Below are positions 53,974-62,814 of a DNA stretch of 64,000 nucleotides, one piece after another. The first letter of the stretch is position 1; every line of letters starts with the position of its first letter. The translations under genes were made by a program, and so were the position numbers. Origin of the DNA: Escherichia coli (GTDB lineage Bacteria > Pseudomonadota > Gammaproteobacteria > Enterobacterales > Enterobacteriaceae). Location: assembly GCF_001677475.2 (NCBI RefSeq), contig NZ_CP012497.1. One strand, 5' to 3'. The notes beneath the pieces were generated by a model that saw only the letters and a program-made list of their open reading frames with translations, was not told where the DNA came from and did not search any database.

Positions 53974-55166
53974 TAATCATCATCCCCGTATAGCTTGCGG
54001 GTAACTTCTTCGTCTTCCTCCTCGTCTTCGTCCAGGTCTTGTTCCAGCCATGGTTCGTTTGATACACCTTCAGTATCAACATCTCCATAACCGCCTGTAT
54101 CAACGATATCGGCGATTTCTTCCCTACGTTGCTCAATCCACAATGCGGCATCGGCGCGGCGGTTGGCGGCCCGTTCTCGCGCAACTTTGTCCAGATCTTC
54201 AAGAGAAGGGCCACCGACGGCAGTTTGCCTTTCCTCATCATCGGTATTGGTCTTAGGAGCACGCAGATCGGCTTTGATTTGCTCCAGCATCAGGGGCGGC
54301 ACTTTCCCACCATGCGCCTCGATGAATTCAGCTGCTTCCAGCACTGACCAGTTATTTTCACGCTTTCGTTCGTATGCCAGCTTAACAATGCCAGCTTGCC
54401 CCATAGATAAAGCGTGCTTTTCCGCCTCCCGGCTTTCTTTTCGATAGTTATTCCGGATGCTGTAAATGGTGTTGATCAGACTGCTTATCTGCGCGGAACA
54501 GCTGTTTAGCATGCTCGCGATACGGTATTCAGGCGGAGTACCTTCATCATCGTCTTTTTGCTGATCGCGCATTTCCTGCACCAGGCGAATACACGTATCC
54601 CTGGCGTTCTCCAGCATAATGAGATGAGAAAGAGACTTTTCCAGAAGAGTGGTTTCCAGAACATCGGCCCCGGACCGACGCAACATAGCGCGCGCGGCCT
54701 TCCGCGCTTCAACGTTATCTATCAGGTAATCGCCAGCTTCGAATTCAAAGCGTTCACCATCATCATCCAGGGTGTCGCGTTCCAGGCGATCACGTAAGGT
54801 CCGGTGGGCACGGGTGATCACGTCATGATCATCAGAACGATCATTTATGCGCTTATTTTGGCGCTTCGCATTCTCGACTGCGGCACTGACAACGGCATTA
54901 ACTCTTTGTTTTTTCGCTATTCCAGCCGCAATGTGATCACCTGCATGTTGATCATTAGAGTGATCAATGATCATGCTTTTTAGTGGCTTCCTGACTGGCT
55001 TATTTGGCTTGCGGCTGTCCGCTGTCCTGGTGTCTTCTTTGAAGGCACGGAGATAACGACGTGCGGTATTAGGGTTAAGATTAAACTCGGCGGCATACTG
55101 TGCGATGGTGTAACCACCATCTCGCGCCAGGCGAGCAAAATTCTTCTTGTGATCGTCCCAGGTCAC
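53973..55166 (-). CDS. pacA: Terminase small subunit PacA (contains pac site)
   Basis: 397 aa, acidic C-terminus; hexamer repeats inside the 5' third of the gene. Confidence 0.9.
54787..54975. other. pac packaging site (two clusters of TGATCA/G / GATC hexamers)
   Basis: GATC hexamers at 54787, 54815, 54826, 54838 and TGATCA at 54934, 54949, 54961, 54968, separated by about 90 bp. Confidence 0.75.
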
Positions 55167-55251
55167 TTATGCTTCCTTTCGTAAAAACTCTTTTTGACGC
55201 GAGGGTAACGAAAGTCACATGTCAAAAGGCCCGGAACGGGCAAGCAATCAA

Positions 55252-55704
55252 TCAGATACGTGCGGATGTGGCATTACCGTAATGACGGTGCTGACGGGCC
55301 ACCTTATTGAAAAGTTGACGCGCCATTACCCAAGGCTGGTGCTCCCGGCGTTCCTTTTCGTCCTGCGTCATATAGAGTTCGTTCTGGAGTTTTTCATCAA
55401 ACCGGCGCGGCGCGCGGCTGCGGCGAAAGAATTCAGGATTCAGAGAGTGGATCTGAAATCTACGTGGGCGTGTACTGTCATCAATCAAAACAGACGAATA
55501 CTTAGACACAGCGATAGCCTTTAAGCGCAGATAAACGTCGCGCTTATCGACATCCAGATGCGGGTATTCCTTTTCAAGGATTGCTGCGAGTTCTTTCGCT
55601 GATAGAAGAGATTTAGTGCGGATCATGTAATCCGCAATCTCATACGATGTTATTCGTGAGTGATTTATTTCCATGAAGTGGCGTCCCTGCCAGTTAAGTA
55701 ACAT
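55252..55704 (-). CDS. lpa: Lpa-like late promoter activator (by size and position)
   Basis: 150 aa directly upstream of pacA; preceded by a C1 operator. Confidence 0.55.
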   Translation of the reverse strand: MLLNWQGRHFMEINHSRITSYEIADYMIRTKSLLSAKELAAILEKEYPHLDVDKRDVYLRLKAIAVSKYSSVLIDDSTRPRRFQIHSLNPEFFRRSRAPRRFDEKLQNELYMTQDEKERREHQPWVMARQLFNKVARQHRHYGNATSARI

Positions 55705-55776
55705 CCTGTCACCTACTGATTAGCCCATGTCAACTAATCAACGTGCAATATAATACACTAGATTAAAGAAATATCA

Positions 55777-55791
55777 ATGCATTAGAGCAAT
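55777..55791. promoter_or_regulatory. C1 operator-like site upstream of lpa
   Basis: Reverse complement ATTGCTCTAATGCAT. Confidence 0.45.
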
Positions 55792-55792
55792 T

Positions 55793-56836
55793 TTATCTAA
55801 CACACGACGAATGACTTGTGATAGCGCCGACTCCAAGCGCGTAATCAAAGAACAATCGTTGATGCATCGCCAGCCTGCCGTGCGTTTTCTCCCAATTATC
55901 GCGGTCACGCTCAATATCACGCTGGCATGACTGGCACAGAGGAATTGCGTAAATGTCATGCGCGCATAATCGACTATGACGAACGATATAAGGCGTAATG
56001 TGAGCGCCAGCTCTCGCAGCTCCACAGCCACAGCATGGACGGGAAGCCACAAAGTCCATGTACTCGGGCAATTTTAGCGATTGAAGTTTTGGTATTTTGA
56101 AATGCGCCATACCTGGGTCGGAGTCAACATCCACAGGGCATACTTTTGCACGCATCGGCGCGGCGCGTTCTTCCATCATCTGAACATATGCTGTAGCGCG
56201 ATCGTCATACGGGCGAATATCCGCCTCTTTCAGAGGTCCGCTATCCTGCGTTGCAGCTTTCATCTTATTTATTGATATACGGCAGACTTCTTCCGGCATC
56301 AGGTGCATCATGTTGCGCATGAAAGCCCACCAGCACAGTTCCTGAATACTTAAATCATGGCCATCTGAAAGCCCCATTTCCTGACGGGCGACATCCAGCA
56401 TCCAGTTAACGCGATTATTATGCAGCGTTTCTTTCAGCTCATTAAAACCACGCATCCGGTAATGGTTATCGTGATGCCAGCACAACAACACCGCGCTATT
56501 GTCTCGTTCAGCGTGGACAATATGGTTGTCACACCAACTACGATCTGCGGCCTGGCATCGCCCCTCTTTCCTGCGCAACCACGCCACCAGCGCGTCAATT
56601 CCACCAATACGGCGAAACAGTTCATCGCTGTTAAAAAACGGCTGCAACGCCTCATTTGTTGCCATGGTTTGCTCGGAAACAACGAGGCCGTCGTCCATGT
56701 GCTCGATTAACTCACGCGGCACCGGCTCCATAATAAATTTACGGCCAGCCTCCACCAGCTTTCTGACTTCCTGATCCACTTTGAATGTGGCGAGGCCAAG
56801 CTCTTTTTGTACAAAGGGAGTAATTACGGCTTTCAC
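55793..56836 (-). CDS. Cys/His-rich hypothetical protein (pdcB position)
   Basis: 347-aa ORF with several Cys/His clusters. Confidence 0.4.
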
Positions 56837-56863
56837 ATCACACCTTTAATCACTGATTGGGCT

Positions 56864-57064
56864 TTATCTGCTGCCCGGCATTTTCTGTTTAAGCACAACC
56901 ATTTCCTGACGGCATAACACAGCAATAGCGGTCCTGGCACCAATTTGCTTACCAACCAGGTATTGCTTTACCTCGCGGCGACTCACGCCATCAAGAAGCA
57001 TCTTTAACGCTCTACGGGACAATTTGTTGTATTTACGTGCCATTAATCTACTCCGCAGAACCAT
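56864..57064 (-). CDS. Small basic hypothetical protein (pdcA position)
   Basis: 66-aa ORF overlapping the doc 3' end. Confidence 0.3.
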
Positions 57065-57428
57065 ACAATCTACGTAACGTGGCGGCGACAGTAGATACAG
57101 ATATCTCTCCGGTCGCAGCCCCTACGGTAAGGTCTGCCAGTTCTGGTGAATCAAATACCTGCACCCCGTTACGGCGTAGAAATAGCAGCGCACTGTTTAG
57201 CGCGGTACGCTTATTGGCATCATTGAATATATGCCCTCTCGCAGTAGCCACCAGGTAGGTGGCGGAGACTTCGAAAAGGTCGGTGATCTCTTCGTAGGCA
57301 ACTCTGGCCTGAACTCTCCCGATAATGGCCTCTGCCCTACCCGGATCTGACATTCCCGGCAGGCCGCCGTAGCGGCTTATATTCGCATCATGAAGCGCAA
57401 TAAGTTCTTCCGGTGATATATGCCTCAT
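57048..57428 (-). CDS. doc: Doc toxin (Fic-fold)
   Basis: 126 aa, [25 protein letters not shown]... Confidence 0.9.
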
Positions 57429-57649
57429 TATCGGTTTACCAGTTCCTTGTTGGTGGAGTCCAGGGTGTCAAACAGGGATGCAAATTCGGCATCCAGCGCC
57501 GCTTTTTTGTAGGCTTCGAAAGTAGCCTTGCTGACAATTACTGCTGGCTCACGGCCTCTGCGAGTGATTTCAACCTCTTCCCCGGCTTCAACATTGTTGA
57601 GCACTTCAGAAAGGTTGCCGCGCGCGGTACGGAAGTTAATGGATTGCAT
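57428..57649 (-). CDS. phd: Phd antitoxin
   Basis: 73 aa, [41 protein letters not shown]...; the ORF-track start is 2 codons upstream. Confidence 0.9.
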
Positions 57650-57721
57650 AAACACCTCGTGTACTCGTTATGTGTACACAATTATAAACTTCACAGGCAT
57701 AAAGCACCAGCACTTTGCAGC

Positions 57722-58111
57722 TTAAATCACCGGACAATCATCAAATTCCCCACTTCGGGCATCATTAATGACATGAGTGATCACACCAAAAACAGCATTA
57801 CTACCCGTGTAACCATCGTCATCTACTGGTAACGCCTCTTTCTTCCCGGTGCTTAAATCCTCAAGGTGCTGACGCGGATACTTTCGGTATCTCTTTATGC
57901 GATATTCACCCTCCATAGCGCAGACAAGCAGCGAACCATCAACTGGAGTAAGCGAAGAATCAACCACCAGCAAAGCACCCTGCAATATTCCCTCACGGTG
58001 ATGACTATCAGCTGCCCTCATGAAGTAGGTCGCTGAAGGATGTCTAATTATCTGCTGATCAAGAGAAATACGGCTCTCAGCATAATCCGCCGCAGGAGAA
58101 GGGAAGCCCAT
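57722..58111 (-). CDS. humD: HumD (UmuD'-like S24 peptidase domain)
   Basis: 129 aa, S24 LexA/UmuD-like C-terminal domain. Confidence 0.8.
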   Translation of the reverse strand: MGFPSPAADYAESRISLDQQIIRHPSATYFMRAADSHHREGILQGALLVVDSSLTPVDGSLLVCAMEGEYRIKRYRKYPRQHLEDLSTGKKEALPVDDDGYTGSNAVFGVITHVINDARSGEFDDCPVI

Positions 58112-58127
58112 AATACTCGCCTCTTAA

Positions 58128-58147
58128 TACTGTATATACATACGGTA
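58128..58147. promoter_or_regulatory. LexA (SOS) box upstream of humD
   Basis: TACTGTATATACATACGGTA vs consensus TACTG(TA)5CAGTA. Confidence 0.5.
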
Positions 58148-58442
58148 TATGTTGAAGCTATATATTTTTGAACTCTATCTCTTAAAAAAGATGTTAATAA
58201 GATGCTAACTATTGAAAGGCATAAATATATACAATTCCAACAAACGTTATTTTTAACAAATTTTTTCTCTCCGTTGACTTTTGCGAAAGCCTTGTCTGGC
58301 CTAAATTGCGCGGAAGCTACTTTTTCCTTCCTGAGTTATCCACAGAGTTATGCACTTGCATGTATAACCTATACACACTATCTTAATTCGCAAGACACTG
58401 ATGTTGCGGTATTGAAGGTTCATTGGGTTAAAAATAGACATT

Positions 58443-58473
58443 AAAAAGCCCAGTTGACTAGGCTGGGCTTTTT
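58443..58473. terminator. Rho-independent terminator-like hairpin (A-run / T-run flanked)
   Basis: AAAAAGCCCAG-TTGACTA-GGCTGGGCTTTTT. Confidence 0.5.
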
Positions 58474-58773
58474 AAGAGGAAACAGAGTTTGCGGCTCTGT
58501 TCCTGAGCCATAAGTATCTGGCGACTGAATTAAGATTAACCGAATGTACTGGATTCATCAAGAAACGTTGAGTGGTCATACCAGGTAATAATGACCATTT
58601 ACTAAACATCGTTGTTCTCAAAGAAGATTTAAGTCCAGGTTTTTGGTGACTCTAAAACCTTACCTTAACTCGAAATCGTGCCGTAAGTATCTGGCGACTA
58701 CAGATATTGCAACTGCAAAGGCAAGCCCAAAGGTATTTGCAGCTAGGCGCGATAAAACTAAGTGAGACCTGTT

Positions 58774-58857
58774 ATGGTTAACTTACTGTTCAAAATCGTG
58801 CCGCCGATGTTCGCGATTATCAAAGCGATCATTGAGTACGTAAACCAGCGTCCATAA
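58774..58857 (+). CDS. Candidate 27-aa hydrophobic peptide
   Basis: ATG...TAA encoding MVNLLFKIVPPMFAIIKAIIEYVNQRP, followed by a hairpin at 58871-58897; weak SD. Confidence 0.2.
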   Translation: MVNLLFKIVPPMFAIIKAIIEYVNQRP

Positions 58858-58912
58858 CGCTAGTTGCTACAGGCCCCATCAAGAGCATGGGGCCTCTTTA
58901 TCGTACTATTGC

Positions 58913-59578
58913 TTATTTTTTACGGACTGAGTTGTTCACTGCTCTGGCAATCTTCTCCCGCAATTGCTGCGTTCCGTGGTACTGAACCGCAATATCCCTC
59001 AACTCGTTCACCAGTTCTCGAATCTGGTGATCTTTAAGCTCATTATTTGGGTGATTGGTAACAACTCTGGTTAATTCACCCTTGTCTTTTGCTCTTACGT
59101 ATGCAGCTCTTGTGCATTCGACCCATGTATTACCGCCTACATTAACTTCGTAGATTAGGCTGGACTTATCTGTCAATTCGGAACAAATACGGGCCGTGGT
59201 CTGGCAACTAGAGCATTCGCAGTTATCGCGGAAACCGTGGTCTACTGGCTTCGGTTTCACATCATCAACTTTTTCTACCCTATTGGAATTTAAATACTTC
59301 GAAGCCTTGCTATGCCAATCGCTTGTTTTAGGATCTTGTCCATCCATCAAACGCCAGGCTTCAGCGATTAACTCATAACTAGTGACTGTAGCTTCCTGCG
59401 CATCACCAACAAGCCGTGTAATCTCTCTTTCAAGCCGACCGCCTAGCTCTGTTTTAGTGCAATGTTCTGACCAATCGCCAGCCTCAAGCAGCGCGAGAAT
59501 GCTTAAAATATCGTCCAATAGAACGGTAGTATTATCGACTTCCTTCTGAAACTCACCGGCTACTGATTTATGCATCAT
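58913..59578 (-). CDS. Hypothetical late protein
   Basis: 221-aa ORF in the minus-strand late operon. Confidence 0.4.
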   Translation of the reverse strand: MMHKSVAGEFQKEVDNTTVLLDDILSILALLEAGDWSEHCTKTELGGRLEREITRLVGDAQEATVTSYELIAEAWRLMDGQDPKTSDWHSKASKYLNSNRVEKVDDVKPKPVDHGFRDNCECSSCQTTARICSELTDKSSLIYEVNVGGNTWVECTRAAYVRAKDKGELTRVVTNHPNNELKDHQIRELVNELRDIAVQYHGTQQLREKIARAVNNSVRKK

Positions 59579-59781
59579 TCGTCATCCTCATCACAGGATG
59601 AGAGTAGTGGGTTAGTCATTCGCCCTACTTGAGTGGCGTAGCCACGCCGACAGAGATTGCGCAGCACACTGTATATTTCGAACATCTCGGTTCGTTCATC
59701 GCCAACATCAAGCTCAGATGCTATAGCGTGGCATTCAGTCGCGAGAGCCGATATTTTCTGAAATAACTCTGCTTTATTCAC
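59575..59781 (-). CDS. Hypothetical small acidic protein
   Basis: 68 aa, 4-bp overlap with the downstream gene. Confidence 0.3.
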   Translation of the reverse strand: MNKAELFQKISALATECHAIASELDVGDERTEMFEIYSVLRNLCRRGYATQVGRMTNPLLSSCDEDDE

Positions 59782-60046
59782 TCTTCGACTCCTGTGGCGG
59801 TTCTGGTAGTGGCATCCAGTGAGTTAGTTTCGATGCTGATTCTTCCCCATCGTCAGTGACTGCCCACCATTTGTTTCTCGACCAATCGTAATACCTTTCG
59901 AAGGTATCGCACTCAGTCCAGCCGTAAGACTTATCCATAAAAATGAAATGGACGCTAGCGCCAGCTTTTCGCTGTGCTTCCATCAGATGAACGAGATAAG
60001 CCGATGTTCGTCCACCTGAAAAGCTGACGACTTGATGCATACTCAC
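59774..60046 (-). CDS. PP-loop ATPase-like N-terminal fragment
   Basis: 90 aa with VVSFSGGRTSAYL (PP-loop motif) but too short for a complete PAPS-reductase/QueC-type enzyme. Confidence 0.35.
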   Translation of the reverse strand: MSMHQVVSFSGGRTSAYLVHLMEAQRKAGASVHFIFMDKSYGWTECDTFERYYDWSRNKWWAVTDDGEESASKLTHWMPLPEPPQESKSE

Positions 60047-60049
60047 GGT

Positions 60050-60778
60050 TTATTCCTGAATGCGCTTAAACTCGATTACCCACACCCAGGGATTAGCGTT
60101 CCAGCTTTCTTCGCCGTAGATGGACTCCCACAGACGCTGGAACGCAACCTTGGCCATTGCGAAGTCCCCATTGGGAGTAAGGAATGTTCCCGGGTAATCA
60201 GGAAGTAAACTTCCAGCAGGCGGAACGCCCTCAGCCCCTGCATCGCATTCGCTGATATCGTTCAACCGCTCAACGCGCACGTTGGTAATTTCCAACAGAA
60301 TGCGTGATGCCCATCGCGGCATGTGAATTGATGGACGCCACCCACCATCAAACTTTTCATTCACAGTGTGAGGTTTCCAGTCGGCATCATCGGGTATCGA
60401 CCATAAGCCGTAATCACCAGGCTTTTGCTCACAACTGGCCCGATAAATCCTTGCTGCGTTCTTCTCATCGCCACGACAAGGGTTGTCGTTCCAGTCCACA
60501 CTGCAACCATCCTCATTGCCTAATATCGCCCATGTTTCACGAACCCAAATTCGATCGCCGACGATACCAAAGGGGCAATTGAAAACACTGCTTACACCAT
60601 CAGCCCCGTACCACTGAAAACCTGCACCAATTTTTCTAACCATCACTGGTGCTTCTGGACCAACTTCCGCAGGCTGATTTTTCATTATCCGCCGCGTCTG
60701 CGTTTTCCTTCCTTCGAGGATGGCCCGGACCATCTCATCGTTGAAAATCATGCCGCGCTCTTTCACTTCGCCTTTCAT
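60050..60778 (-). CDS. Hypothetical protein
   Basis: 242-aa ORF with 4-bp overlap to the downstream gene. Confidence 0.4.
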   Translation of the reverse strand: MKGEVKERGMIFNDEMVRAILEGRKTQTRRIMKNQPAEVGPEAPVMVRKIGAGFQWYGADGVSSVFNCPFGIVGDRIWVRETWAILGNEDGCSVDWNDNPCRGDEKNAARIYRASCEQKPGDYGLWSIPDDADWKPHTVNEKFDGGWRPSIHMPRWASRILLEITNVRVERLNDISECDAGAEGVPPAGSLLPDYPGTFLTPNGDFAMAKVAFQRLWESIYGEESWNANPWVWVIEFKRIQE

Positions 60779-60787
60779 GCATCCCCC

Positions 60788-60874
60788 TTACCCATGCGCG
60801 ACGATGCCGCCAAAAGTGATAGAGAACAGCCAGAAATAGATCGCGGCCATAATGATTTTGAATGCCGTGTTCAT
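60788..60874 (-). CDS. Candidate 28-aa hydrophobic peptide
   Basis: MNTAFKIIMAAIYFWLFSITFGGIVAHG with SD AGGAG 8 nt upstream, 9 nt before the next gene start. Confidence 0.3.
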   Translation of the reverse strand: MNTAFKIIMAAIYFWLFSITFGGIVAHG

Positions 60875-60958
60875 ATTTTCAGCTCCTGTGATTGATTGGA
60901 TACATGCCGCGCCTTGCGGCATGTTTTTATTTTCACTTTCTCTGTTTTAAAAATCAAC

Positions 60959-60973
60959 ATTTATTAGAGCAAT
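60959..60973. promoter_or_regulatory. C1 operator
   Basis: Reverse complement ATTGCTCTAATAAAT, exact consensus core. Confidence 0.55.
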
Positions 60974-61479
60974 TATTGTTGATGAAGAAGCGCATTTTCA
61001 TACTCCCTAACCATTAATGTAAGTACGCCGTGACTCCTGAAAACACGCGCCACTTCAATCTTATCTTCCAGCGCGAACGCAATTTTACTTAGACCAATTT
61101 TCTTCAGGAGATCAATCTTTGCTGGACCGTCATTTCTGTCATCGGTGGCAGGACGCATAGATAGCAAAGGCTCATCCCCGTTTGTTACGTACTTTCGCAG
61201 CCAGGCTCGTGTTTTATCCCTTGCGATCTCACAGCGCCCGGTTACAAACCAGACCGTGTAAATGCTGGATAACTGGCGCACCATATCAATAACTGGAGTA
61301 ATGGGAGCATCAGTTTCACAGGCAAGGTTAAACTCGTTCCAGTGCTCTGTTAATGCACCTTTACCTGGTGGTGGAAGTAAATGCAGCCTGTCTTCCGTTG
61401 CCTCTGATATCGTCCCATCAATATCTACTATGACGATGTACGGACGTTCCTGGTGTGCGTGTTTATTGAAAATACTCAA
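60973..61479 (-). CDS. pap: HAD-family phosphatase (Pap-like)
   Basis: 168 aa, HAD motif I VIVDIDGTIS. Confidence 0.55.
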   Translation of the reverse strand: MSIFNKHAHQERPYIVIVDIDGTISEATEDRLHLLPPPGKGALTEHWNEFNLACETDAPITPVIDMVRQLSSIYTVWFVTGRCEIARDKTRAWLRKYVTNGDEPLLSMRPATDDRNDGPAKIDLLKKIGLSKIAFALEDKIEVARVFRSHGVLTLMVREYENALLHQQ

Positions 61480-61551
61480 ATGCCCTCCTCATTGGACGAA
61501 AAAAATGCTGGTGGGCGCACTCCACCAGCATTAAAAGTGACACTGTAACTA

Positions 61552-62814
61552 TCAGCGAACGTAAATAGTGCCGCCGTTCTCTTTTTCCCATGCATCGCTA
61601 CGTGCATAGCAAACATCGAGAAGTCTTCTTGCCGCAGTTTCCTCTAAACCCAATTCGACAACCAACTGCTCATGACGGCGGGTAACCACATCAAACAGGG
61701 TATGCAGTCCTTTAGTTGCCAGATCATCAATGAATTCCGGTTCGAACGGCAGCTCTGCATCTGCCAACATAACCTCTTGCGCCCACTCAACTCGACGGAC
61801 CAGTTCCGGGCGGCGGCTTTCCATCTCTTTACAGATCAATTCATGGAAGAACTCTACCCAACCTTCCGGCTGGAACTCGCGGAAAATTGCCAACGGCTGG
61901 AAGTTTGGCATCAACCATTCGTTGATTCGGATATCAATGGCATAGCCCATGTCGCAGCAGAACTGATAAGCAAAGTCCAGCTTAGAAACGATATAAGGAC
62001 GCTCGTTATTGAACTCTTTAGGCGATGAGATCCCATAAGCCAGGAGGCGCGGGAAGAAGGAGATTTGCCCTAACGTCGGATGAAGTTTGCTTGCAGGGAA
62101 ACGGCGCTCAGTAATGCCATACATTTCCTTCTTGAGCGTCGCAAATTTGGCATTCTCATTAACCAGCGCGGTAACCTCTGCTTTTTTATTAGCAAATGCC
62201 ACGCGCGCCTCACTTGCATCTTTAATAGTCTTTTTGAGCTGTTGGTTAAGGTCGGCGACCTGCTTACGCAGTTCCTGTCGCTCACTTTTGGCTTTGTTAT
62301 AGCGTTTCTCAAGGTTAAAAGGATCAAGTTTCATGATCTCTTTATATTGAGATTTTAGCGTTGAAATCTGTGAGTTCCGCAGTTCAACCATCGCTGTCAT
62401 TTCATTGAGTTTTGTTTCCAGCTCAATGCTTATACGTTCGGCATTATCAGCACGCAGGTTGGCGTCATGCGTCGCATCGTCGATCGCATCCTGTTGCTGG
62501 CGTTTCAAATGTTCAATTTGCAGATGAAGCTCTTCAATTTCTTTACCCTTCAGGCCGAGATCCAACTGCATATTTTCGGCTTCATCTACCAGGGAGTTAT
62601 GGCTATCAGCTTCTGCGTTATAAACATCAATAAGCTGTGCGTGAAGCATCTCCGCTGACTGAACCGCATTATCAAAAAAACGCGCTGTGAGGTCATCACA
62701 ACTAACGCGGCGTTGCGCGGCTCGGATGTTCTGGATAATGGCCGGGATACCGGCATTCAGGACGTCAGGGATAGATACATTTTCGATTGATTGGTTTTGT
62801 GCTGAAGTGCTCAT
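61552..62814 (-). CDS. Hypothetical coiled-coil protein
   Basis: 420 aa with a long coiled-coil segment. Confidence 0.4.
   Translation of the reverse strand: MSTSAQNQSIENVSIPDVLNAGIPAIIQNIRAAQRRVSCDDLTARFFDNAVQSAEMLHAQLIDVYNAEADSHNSLVDEAENMQLDLGLKGKEIEELHLQIEHLKRQQQDAIDDATHDANLRADNAERISIELETKLNEMTAMVELRNSQISTLKSQYKEIMKLDPFNLEKRYNKAKSERQELRKQVADLNQQLKKTIKDASEARVAFANKKAEVTALVNENAKFATLKKEMYGITERRFPASKLHPTLGQISFFPRLLAYGISSPKEFNNERPYIVSKLDFAYQFCCDMGYAIDIRINEWLMPNFQPLAIFREFQPEGWVEFFHELICKEMESRRPELVRRVEWAQEVMLADAELPFEPEFIDDLATKGLHTLFDVVTRRHEQLVVELGLEETAARRLLDVCYARSDAWEKENGGTIYVR

Follow-up and report, generated by a model that had tools for sequence, protein, structure and literature searches.

An in-frame chimera of a PAPS-reductase-family gene start and a DUF551 fragment, probably a recombination scar, in the pmgT operon of a P1-like phage-plasmid

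The 64-kb stretch of DNA that we analyzed (the window) belongs to a P1-like phage-plasmid (Punavirus). From position 60084 upward, the sequence is 97–98% identical to phage P1 over pmgT, pap and pmgS, and from 54000 to about 58150 it is 96.5% identical to P1 over humD-phd-doc-pdcA-pdcB-lpa; these flanks in P1 order (pmgS, pap, pmgT, humD, phd and doc, 96–98%), together with a C1 repressor operator, place the window among P1-like phage-plasmids. The operator (ATTGCTCTAATAAATGT; 60957–60973, minus strand) has one mismatch to the consensus, is equivalent to P1 OpmgT/Op88 and overlaps a promoter-like site at 61001–60972. The first gene of the C1-repressed operon is pmgT (60050–60778, minus strand), which encodes an ASCH-like protein of 242 aa, and the second is the ORF studied here (59774–60046, minus strand). 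Its final codons overlap the GTG start (59781) of the next gene, which encodes a 68-aa protein of unknown function (59575–59781, minus strand; phrog_4220) and which in phage Cyrano is fused in frame to DUF551. A gene for a 221-aa protein of unknown function follows (58913–59578, minus strand; phrog_20174), and further down lies humD (57722–58111, minus strand), encoding an S24 peptidase/UmuD-like protein. An Rfam scan of 56.5–61.6 kb gave no match near threshold, and a strict pattern search found no LexA box before humD.

The ORF encodes 90 aa from a GTG start, and its exact product is present in public assemblies. Its translation opens with MSMHQVVSFSGGRTSAYLVHLMEAQRKAGASVHFIFMD, followed by KSYGWTECDTFERYYDWSRNKWWAVTDDGEESASKLTHWMPLPEPPQESKSE; the N-terminus reads MSMHQVVSFSGGRTSAYL. 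The GTG follows the pmgT stop codon at a distance of 3 nt and has an AGGA 7 nt before it. An alternative ATG start at 60040, two codons after the GTG, would give 88 aa, and this is the start that full-length PAPS-reductase homologues use. An earlier note on this DNA, which took the ORF for a possibly truncated nucleotide-modification enzyme, was right about the coordinates, strand, length and position of a PP-loop at the start. It was also right that the gene is a truncated relative, homologous by descent, of the PAPS-reductase/PP-loop family; however, only the first 38 codons come from such a gene, and the other 50 residues are DUF551, which the note missed. We found that the ORF is not a short enzyme of this kind but an in-frame chimera that arose by deletion or illegitimate recombination.

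Codons 1–38 (59932–60046, minus strand) are the 5' remnant of a PAPS-reductase-family gene. The PP-loop is genuine: residues 3–38 are identical at 36/36 positions to the N-terminus of WP_033553812.1, a 290-aa "phosphoadenosine phosphosulfate reductase family protein" of IncY P1-like plasmids. At the nucleotide level, 98.2% identity to the plasmid pCE0026a2 (L004) runs from 60150 to 59932, through the 3' end of pmgT and into the PAPS-reductase gene. When the ORF was compared with phage genomes by tblastn, residues 1–38 matched solely PAPS-reductase N-termini (79–82% in lambdoid phages). The remnant retains strand 1, the PP-loop SGGRTS, helix 1 and strand 2, and ends in FIFMD; the PP-loop motif SGGxDS/T is present after the first beta strand (VVSFSGGRTSAYL, residues 6–18), the same as in the full-length homologue. 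The D-T-G...P-x-T-Y segment after strand 2, which we defined by alignment with the solved PAPS/APS reductases 6vpu and 2goy, is cut, with the join at FMD|KSY where the parent reads FMDTGCEHPLTYRF. About 87% of the protein is lost (about 13% is left), including two C-terminal cysteine-containing stretches, NCVFC and CSESC. The Pfam PF01507 score of the ORF is 15.1 bits (cut-off 22.5, E = 0.024; profile positions 3–44 of 175), below threshold because only about 40 residues of the domain are present, and the intact 290-aa homologue scores 37.7 bits; the ORF thus reaches neither the gathering threshold nor the domain coverage of PF01507, and apart from the PP-loop motif every test of PAPS-reductase membership that we ran came out negative. 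None of the six frames of the 64-kb window contains the other 252 codons: tblastn with two full-length homologues recovered only residues 1–36/38 and nothing else at E <0.1. The remainder is therefore missing from the adjacent frames, as the earlier note had it, and the frame-shifted remnants that it proposed to look for do not exist in the window. Judged from its sequence, the chimeric ORF cannot act as a PP-loop or PAPS-reductase-type enzyme, and neither ATP pyrophosphatase nor sulfur-transfer activity is expected from a 38-residue fragment.

Residues 39–88 correspond to a DUF551 domain from which the N-terminal third is missing. The middle part of the domain (59826–59931, minus strand; KSYGWTECDTFERYYDWSRNKWWAVTDDGEESASK) is of the lambdoid "Ea22"-associated type and is followed by the conserved DUF551 3' end (59774–59825, minus strand; THWMPLPEPPQE...). 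The middle part is 91.5% identical in nucleotides and 92% identical in amino acids to the ea22 protein gene of phage EC.W1-9, and 89% identical to the DUF551 gene of a P1-like plasmid (L014). In tblastn of the ORF against phages, residues 39–88 matched solely DUF551/"Ea22" C-termini, at up to 92–94%. Pfam DUF551 (PF04448) scores 33.5 bits on the ORF (cut-off 22, E = 8e-8; residues 45–85, profile positions 20–68 of 68), so that the threshold is reached and the full domain is not; a control protein (P0007) covers profile positions 1–68 with 65.7 bits. What is missing includes W-I-S-C-S-E-R-M-P, a segment within profile positions 1–19 that is at least 90% conserved in 25 aligned members. An AlphaFold model of an intact DUF551 member predicts six strands, two of which fall in the part missing here; the model is of low to moderate confidence (mean pLDDT 63.6) and was left out of fold searches. 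It is unlikely that the ORF works as a DUF551 protein.

The two halves meet at a novel joint (59932–59936, minus strand) that we located by three-way alignment and by blastn end points: identity to the PAPS-reductase gene ends at 59932, and homology to DUF551 (phage EC.W1-9, 91.5% in nucleotides) begins at 59936. On the coding strand the joint reads ...TTTATGGATA|AGTCT (the bar marks the joint), compared with ATGGATACCGGC in the PAPS-reductase parent and GGGGTAAGTCT in the DUF551 parent; in the three-way alignment, the window (TTTATGGATA|AGTCTTAC) is set against the PAPS-reductase parent (TTTATGGATACCGGC) and the DUF551 parent (TTGGGGTAAGTCTTAC). The joint is in frame and has a 2-nt microhomology, TA (5 nt if imperfect, GGrTA). 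A direct parent of the DUF551 half, with the same variant and the 68-aa gene, was not found in PLSDB or the other collections searched; the plasmids L014 and L120 were considered for this role and rejected, because the identity was no more than 89% or the plasmid type differed. Because this parent was not found, a one-step and a two-step origin are indistinguishable. When we searched PLSDB with a query spanning the junction, the two pieces aligned as one across the intact gene.

A second mosaic boundary lies at 59825, inside the conserved DUF551 3' end (THWMPLPE), where sequence of the pLF82/SSU5 type starts. Here pLF82, which is identical to phage Cyrano, begins to match at 59824/59825 and matches downward at 96–99%; PLSDB matches of 98–99% stop at 59825, and many 105–126-kb pLF82-type phage-plasmids match below it. 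This pLF82/Cyrano block (SSU5-like phage-plasmid; 58004–59824, 1.8 kb) contains the phrog_4220 gene, the phrog_20174 gene and an ORF-poor 0.8 kb, and runs into humD, where the SNP pattern changes from pLF82-like to P1-like at about 57999–58004, the site of a homologous crossover that closes the far side of the block. Unrelated DUF551 genes are 92–93% alike at the 3' end, 31–38 nt of which are common to several of them, and this conservation allows the 3' end to serve as a homologous linker. In the window, the 1.8-kb block takes the place of the 6.7–9 kb of P1-like accessory genes that are usual here. Measured from the PAPS-reductase break to humD, the interval is 7.1–9.0 kb in sister plasmids, with Ea22-like, DUF551, eaa, hot and other genes, and about 1.9 kb in the window. 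The stretch from pmgT to humD is variable region 8 of P1-like phage-plasmids (PMC9603915), and the chimeric ORF lies at its edge. In P1, CRISPRi has shown the genes located here to be non-essential (PMC10695390).

No plasmid, phage or genome in PLSDB, INPHARED or the complete E. coli genomes spans either junction, and the chimera was found in draft contigs. The exact 90-aa protein is encoded on five of them, and three more carry a 69-aa call of the same ORF that NCBI names "DUF551 domain-containing protein"; the chimera is thus unchanged in at least eight draft contigs from several samples. Three assemblies (GCA_018683295.1, GCA_002516285.1 and GCA_033692315.1) are 100% identical to the window over 54000–62000, and a fourth contig is 99.06% identical over the aligned 6.5 kb (55522–62000). 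The chimera is carried by a circulating lineage. All copies of the ORF are identical and thus offer no sequence variation that could inform on selection.

The intact arrangement, with pmgT followed directly by an 873-nt PAPS-reductase-family gene, occurs in many IncY P1-like plasmids (for example, pCE0026a2). We found it in at least 60 PLSDB plasmids, counted as records intact beyond the break point, as well as in 13 contigs from IMG/VR and 7 from metagenomes. Published work connects phage PAPS-reductase domains with escape from Dnd defence (bioRxiv 10.1101/2021.05.05.442762; 10.64898/2026.07.27.740549), and intact domains of this kind are proposed to modify DNA or to counter defence of the Dnd type. 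The lost 290-aa gene was probably an accessory gene for DNA modification or anti-defence.

Taken together, these data suggest, with a probability of roughly 0.8, that recombination left the ORF behind as a scar: a chimeric pseudogene, fused in frame and without PAPS-reductase or ATP-pyrophosphatase activity. The order of events, which we infer, would have started from a P1-like phage-plasmid with the 290-aa PAPS-reductase-family gene right behind pmgT. An illegitimate, microhomology-mediated join would then have connected codon 38 to an internal position in a DUF551 gene lying downstream in the operon, discarding the rest of the enzyme along with several kilobases of accessory genes, and the DUF551 3' end with the next 1.8 kb of pLF82/SSU5-like sequence would have entered through homologous exchange, on one side at the conserved DUF551 3' end and on the other within humD. 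Because the native ribosome-binding site, the pmgT-adjacent start and the stop/start overlap are all kept, the chimera is probably still translated on prophage induction, and its main effect may be to maintain translational coupling with the two genes downstream (68 and 221 aa).

Some features of the ORF count against reading it as a scar: the fusion is in frame with good, native translation signals, the DUF551 part scores above the Pfam threshold (33.5 bits against 22), and the fusion persists unchanged in the draft contigs from several isolates. These features would suit a functional small DUF551-type protein that has gained a new N-terminal module, all the more as natural members are highly variable or unrelated at the N-terminus and a new one would not be unusual. 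We nevertheless consider such a protein improbable, at around one chance in eight, since the first third of the domain is missing together with the highly conserved WISCSERMP, two of the six strands in the low-confidence model are predicted to be lost, and the persistence of identical copies is explicable by recent common descent. Moreover, sister junctions join the same PAPS-reductase start to unrelated partners, at least one of them with a short out-of-frame tail, which argues that the DUF551 partner is incidental. Two further explanations can be regarded as refuted. A full-length PP-loop enzyme hidden by frameshifts or sequencing errors near 59.5–60.8 kb has only the N-terminal motif in its favour, but the six-frame tblastn recovered no more than the remnant, pmgT, DUF551 and the genes for the 68-aa and 221-aa proteins explain the flanking DNA, and 54000–62000 is 100% identical in three independent assemblies. 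That the PP-loop-like motif is a coincidence in an unrelated small ORF, the outcome that the earlier note had named as its own refutation, might be argued from the PF01507 score, which by itself is under threshold; however, 36/36 residues and 98% of 219 nt match the start of real 290-aa genes at the same genomic position, and a profile search assigned residues 2–52 to PHROG 424 (PAPS reductase) with E = 6.9e-9.

The scar in the window is one of a series. In public assemblies we found at least nine distinct deletion junctions, the window's included, with the common left end ...TTTATGGATA|CCGG. They came to light in protein searches as other short proteins that share the first 35–38 residues and then continue into different partners. 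Among these are other DUF551 genes, eaa, the C-terminus of HumD and the 67-aa gene usually found next, and two different internal deletions lead into the C-terminus of the PAPS reductase itself. We fetched the junction DNA for eight of the protein-search cases and obtained more from DNA-pattern scans. The window's joint, ATGGATA|AGTCT, is matched on its left side by ATGGATA|TGTAC (L095), ATGGATA|ATGCT (L096), ATGGATA|GCTGG (L097), ATGGATA|GGGAA (L099, the same as L195) and ATGGATA|GCAGA (L104, the same as L121 and L197); the remaining junctions are ATGGATAC|AGGC (L100), ATGGATACCGG|TACC (L098) and ATGGAT|GACTTC (L101). Three further fusions (P0101, P0111 and P0117) were recognized from protein sequence only. 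The L104-type joint is also present in the complete plasmid pMTY9803_untypable1, where PGAP annotates both halves as pseudogenes. Seven of the nine joints have a partner that maps downstream on intact reference plasmids, which gives deletions of 540, 588, 782 and 1529 nt and of about 2.1–4.4, 3.2–5.5 and 7.1–9.0 kb. The window joint, whose pre-deletion parent is not among the sequences, and the L104 type had no such placement, and two partners are without a parent sequence in the data. Six of the eight joints with a traceable parent have TA just before the joint (GGGGTA, AGGGTA, TGGTTA, GCAGTA, ACGTTA and CCCATA), and the traceable joints show 2–7 nt of imperfect homology with TGGATA(CCGG).

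A different allele, on an E. coli chromosome (NZ_AP027788.1), is truncated on the opposite side: its homology begins ...CCCG|GATACCGG, is 87% identical over the aligned 55 nt and adjoins a truncated tail-fibre-assembly gene. The retained left ends finish in GATA and the sole retained right end starts with GATA. GATA on both retained sides is what would be expected from a filled-in, 4-nt 5'-staggered cut (ATG^GATA^CCGG). Tentatively, then, ...TTTATG^GATA^CCGG at codons 35–38 of phage PAPS-reductase genes may be a site-specific break, nick or replication-stall site. The cause might be strong cleavage by a type II topoisomerase at this site, or a nuclease that targets this conserved coding segment and makes a nick or a staggered cut (4-nt 5' overhang); alternatively, replication might stall and the template be switched. 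Repair by microhomology would then lead to repeated one-sided deletions that destroy the putative anti-defence gene, and one of the resulting scars would be the ORF in the window.

The clustering of break points could instead be an artefact of protein searching and gene calling, with the window joint a random end point. The protein search was biased: judged from match lengths, it had an apparent limit of about 1.75 times the query length and needed some 30 or more matching residues, and the matches to a 40-aa query were all 32–69 aa, suggesting a length filter. Short out-of-frame products are seldom called as genes. Deletions of the gene with other left ends also exist, at reference positions 85, 149 and 185, the last of which (codon 22) is abundant, being found in 18 of 80 IMG/VR loci and in phage vB_EcoM-813R1. 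Against an artefact, an 80-aa query, which could have detected breaks anywhere from codon 39 to about codon 120, revealed none in this allele. DNA-pattern scans, which are independent of gene calling, recovered 13 intact genes (checked along the gene) and one hot-spot junction from IMG/VR, and seven copies intact at the site and two hot-spot junctions from metagenomes; among these 20 copies intact at the site and three junctions, there was no other internal break. Finally, the different allele in NZ_AP027788.1 has its break at the same site but has kept the other side. We therefore hold an artefact to be a minor prospect, at about one chance in ten.

Several candidate causes of a break at this site were rejected. 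Plain type II restriction at A^CCGGC (RCCGGY) does not single it out, as the window has 66 such sites, including some in conserved genes. An ATG PAM precedes the site, but the direction of the deletions is wrong for a type I-E CRISPR protospacer on that strand, and a spread sample of complete E. coli genomes, a weak test, held no spacer-like 32-nt match. The DNA fold is no better than that of shuffled sequences (z of –0.5 and –0.7), which speaks against a hairpin or cruciform, and the only repeat at the break site is one of 5 bp, TCCAT-N9-ATGGA. There is no true Chi site nearby, only GCTGGCGC upstream with two mismatches to Chi. No IS element is found at the junctions, and the traceable right-hand partners are ordinary genes of the same variable region. 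One apparent further deletion, L102 (in a non-P1 context), proved to be an insertion beside the site: a MITE-like element of about 264 nt, with a TTTAT duplication of 5 bp, lies 2 nt to its left. This insertion, too, points to the few nucleotides at which the breaks occur.

Although public records name the ORF and its sisters "DUF551 domain-containing protein" or "hypothetical protein," what they represent is the scars of fusions, and a short phage ORF that opens with a PP-loop motif should not be taken for a small enzyme. Gene flow among three pools, P1-like, SSU5/pLF82-like and lambdoid ea-region modules, has left its trace in the joint, as has the loss of a PAPS-reductase-like gene from a family proposed to counter Dnd-type defence. 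If the break is indeed targeted, an unrecognized nuclease or topoisomerase site would be shaping the accessory genes of a clinically common plasmid family.

The locus resembles variable region 8 (pmgT...humD) of other P1-like phage-plasmids in its position between pmgS/pap/pmgT and humD-phd-doc and in its pattern of block replacement (PMC9603915). It differs in that the combination of stump, DUF551 fragment and pLF82-type block seen here occurs only in draft contigs. With the PF01507 family (lambda NinC and the DndC/SspD-like phage proteins), the ORF shares 38 N-terminal residues by descent, including the PP-loop SGGRTS, and the intact parent gene stands at the same place in sister plasmids; in contrast to that family, the ORF lacks most of the alpha/beta domain and the NCVFC/CSESC stretches, and its DTG is cut. 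Similarly, residues 39–88 are 88–94% alike to many E. coli and Salmonella prophage proteins of the DUF551 type, which occur in lambdoid ea/Ea22 regions and phage-plasmids, and end in the common THWMPLPEPPQE, whereas the N-terminal third with WISCSERMP is replaced by an unrelated PP-loop fragment. Novel joints in mosaic accessory regions are a familiar phenomenon, and this one, though undescribed, is ordinary. Mosaic "novel joints" of lambdoid phage genomes have reportedly been described by Juhala and Hendrix, and microhomology-dependent illegitimate recombination in E. coli is said to fall into Ikeda's gyrase-linked and short-homology-dependent classes. The joint in the window is like these in its sharp switch of homology inside genes with 2–7 nt of microhomology, and the DUF551 3' end is like the short conserved linkers at which lambdoid genomes exchange by homology. 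The difference is that many independent events here share one of their two partner sites to the nucleotide, which is unexpected for random joints; this reuse is the only unusual aspect of the locus and might surprise a specialist.

At the hot spot in the PAPS-reductase gene (codons 35-38; window 59932-59936), we found that the left end ...TTTATGGAT(A)(CCGG) is common to at least nine distinct deletion junctions in public assemblies (the window itself and loci L095-L101, L104, L121, L195 and L197). Where the deletion partners can be traced, they lie 0.5-9 kb downstream of this left end, and most of these traced partners carry microhomology of 2-7 nt ending in TA. DNA-pattern scans of this PAPS-reductase allele revealed no further internal breaks. 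On the chromosome of E. coli 2017.04.02CC (NZ_AP027788.1 near 1,060,024; fetched locus L122, about 2495-2510), a different PAPS-reductase allele is truncated at the identical site with the right-hand side retained (...CCCG/GATACCGGTTGCGAACATCC, the slash marking the joint), and a truncated tail-fibre-assembly gene adjoins the remnant. The right-kept end in L122 and the left-kept junctions overlap by 4 nt, GATA; this overlap would fit a 5'-staggered cut at the PAPS-reductase site.

Among the states seen in P1-like elements, the most frequent is a different deletion of the same gene, which runs from codon 22 to the last ~7 codons and is present in 18 of the 80 IMG/VR PmgT loci (for example, L020 and L022-L031) and in L001 (4001-4069). 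The overlap at its joint is 6-7 nt, and the deletion leaves an unannotated 23-codon stump with pmgT on one side and the 67-aa gene on the other, the arrangement of the phage vB_EcoM-813R1 type. A few less frequent deletions start from reference positions 85 and 149 on their left side. In a non-P1 context (Logan SRR7184389 contig; L102 4105-4368), the PAPS-reductase gene is interrupted by an element of ~264 nt, inserted at a distance of 2 nt from the hot spot. It has GGGG...CCCC ends with imperfect terminal inverted repeats of ~36 nt, is accompanied by a 5-bp TTTAT duplication at its insertion, and looks like a MITE derived from the Tn3 family, although certain copies fall under 'IS91 family transposase' annotations. 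Of 5426 complete E. coli genomes, 379 carry copies, which are found on both chromosomes and plasmids.

Public records include a call of the PAPS-reductase/DUF551 chimera from an internal Met, a 69-aa 'DUF551 domain-containing protein' (e.g. ANO88944.1, P0001 cluster), and this call and name mask the PAPS-reductase stump; the sister fusions are named 'hypothetical protein'.

Across the window, the P1 C1-operator consensus has 11 matches at ≤3 mismatches, compared with 0.3 expected by chance (29733, 49275, 49358, 52469, 60957 and others). These predicted operators fit the view that the element has a complete P1-type immunity network. In the pmgS/pap gap, a minus-strand palindrome (61504-61532), AATGCTGGTGGAGTGCGCCCACCAGCATT, resembles a terminator and has a T run after it; the Chi octamer GCTGGTGG occurs within this palindrome in both orientations. 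Between humD and the 221-aa gene (58112-58912, 0.8 kb), we found no convincing ORF, no LexA box by strict pattern and no Rfam match reaching threshold (top match AgrB, 26 bits versus 40). The same stretch is present, likewise unannotated, in pLF82-type plasmids.

Phage Cyrano/pLF82 encodes the DUF551 domain and the 68-aa protein together in a single 217-aa ORF. In the window they are two overlapping genes, split relative to Cyrano/pLF82 by a 1-nt difference near 59800 (59790-59835 aligned with L003 3400-3440); DUF551 proteins usually end as the window version does (WMPLPEPPQE...).
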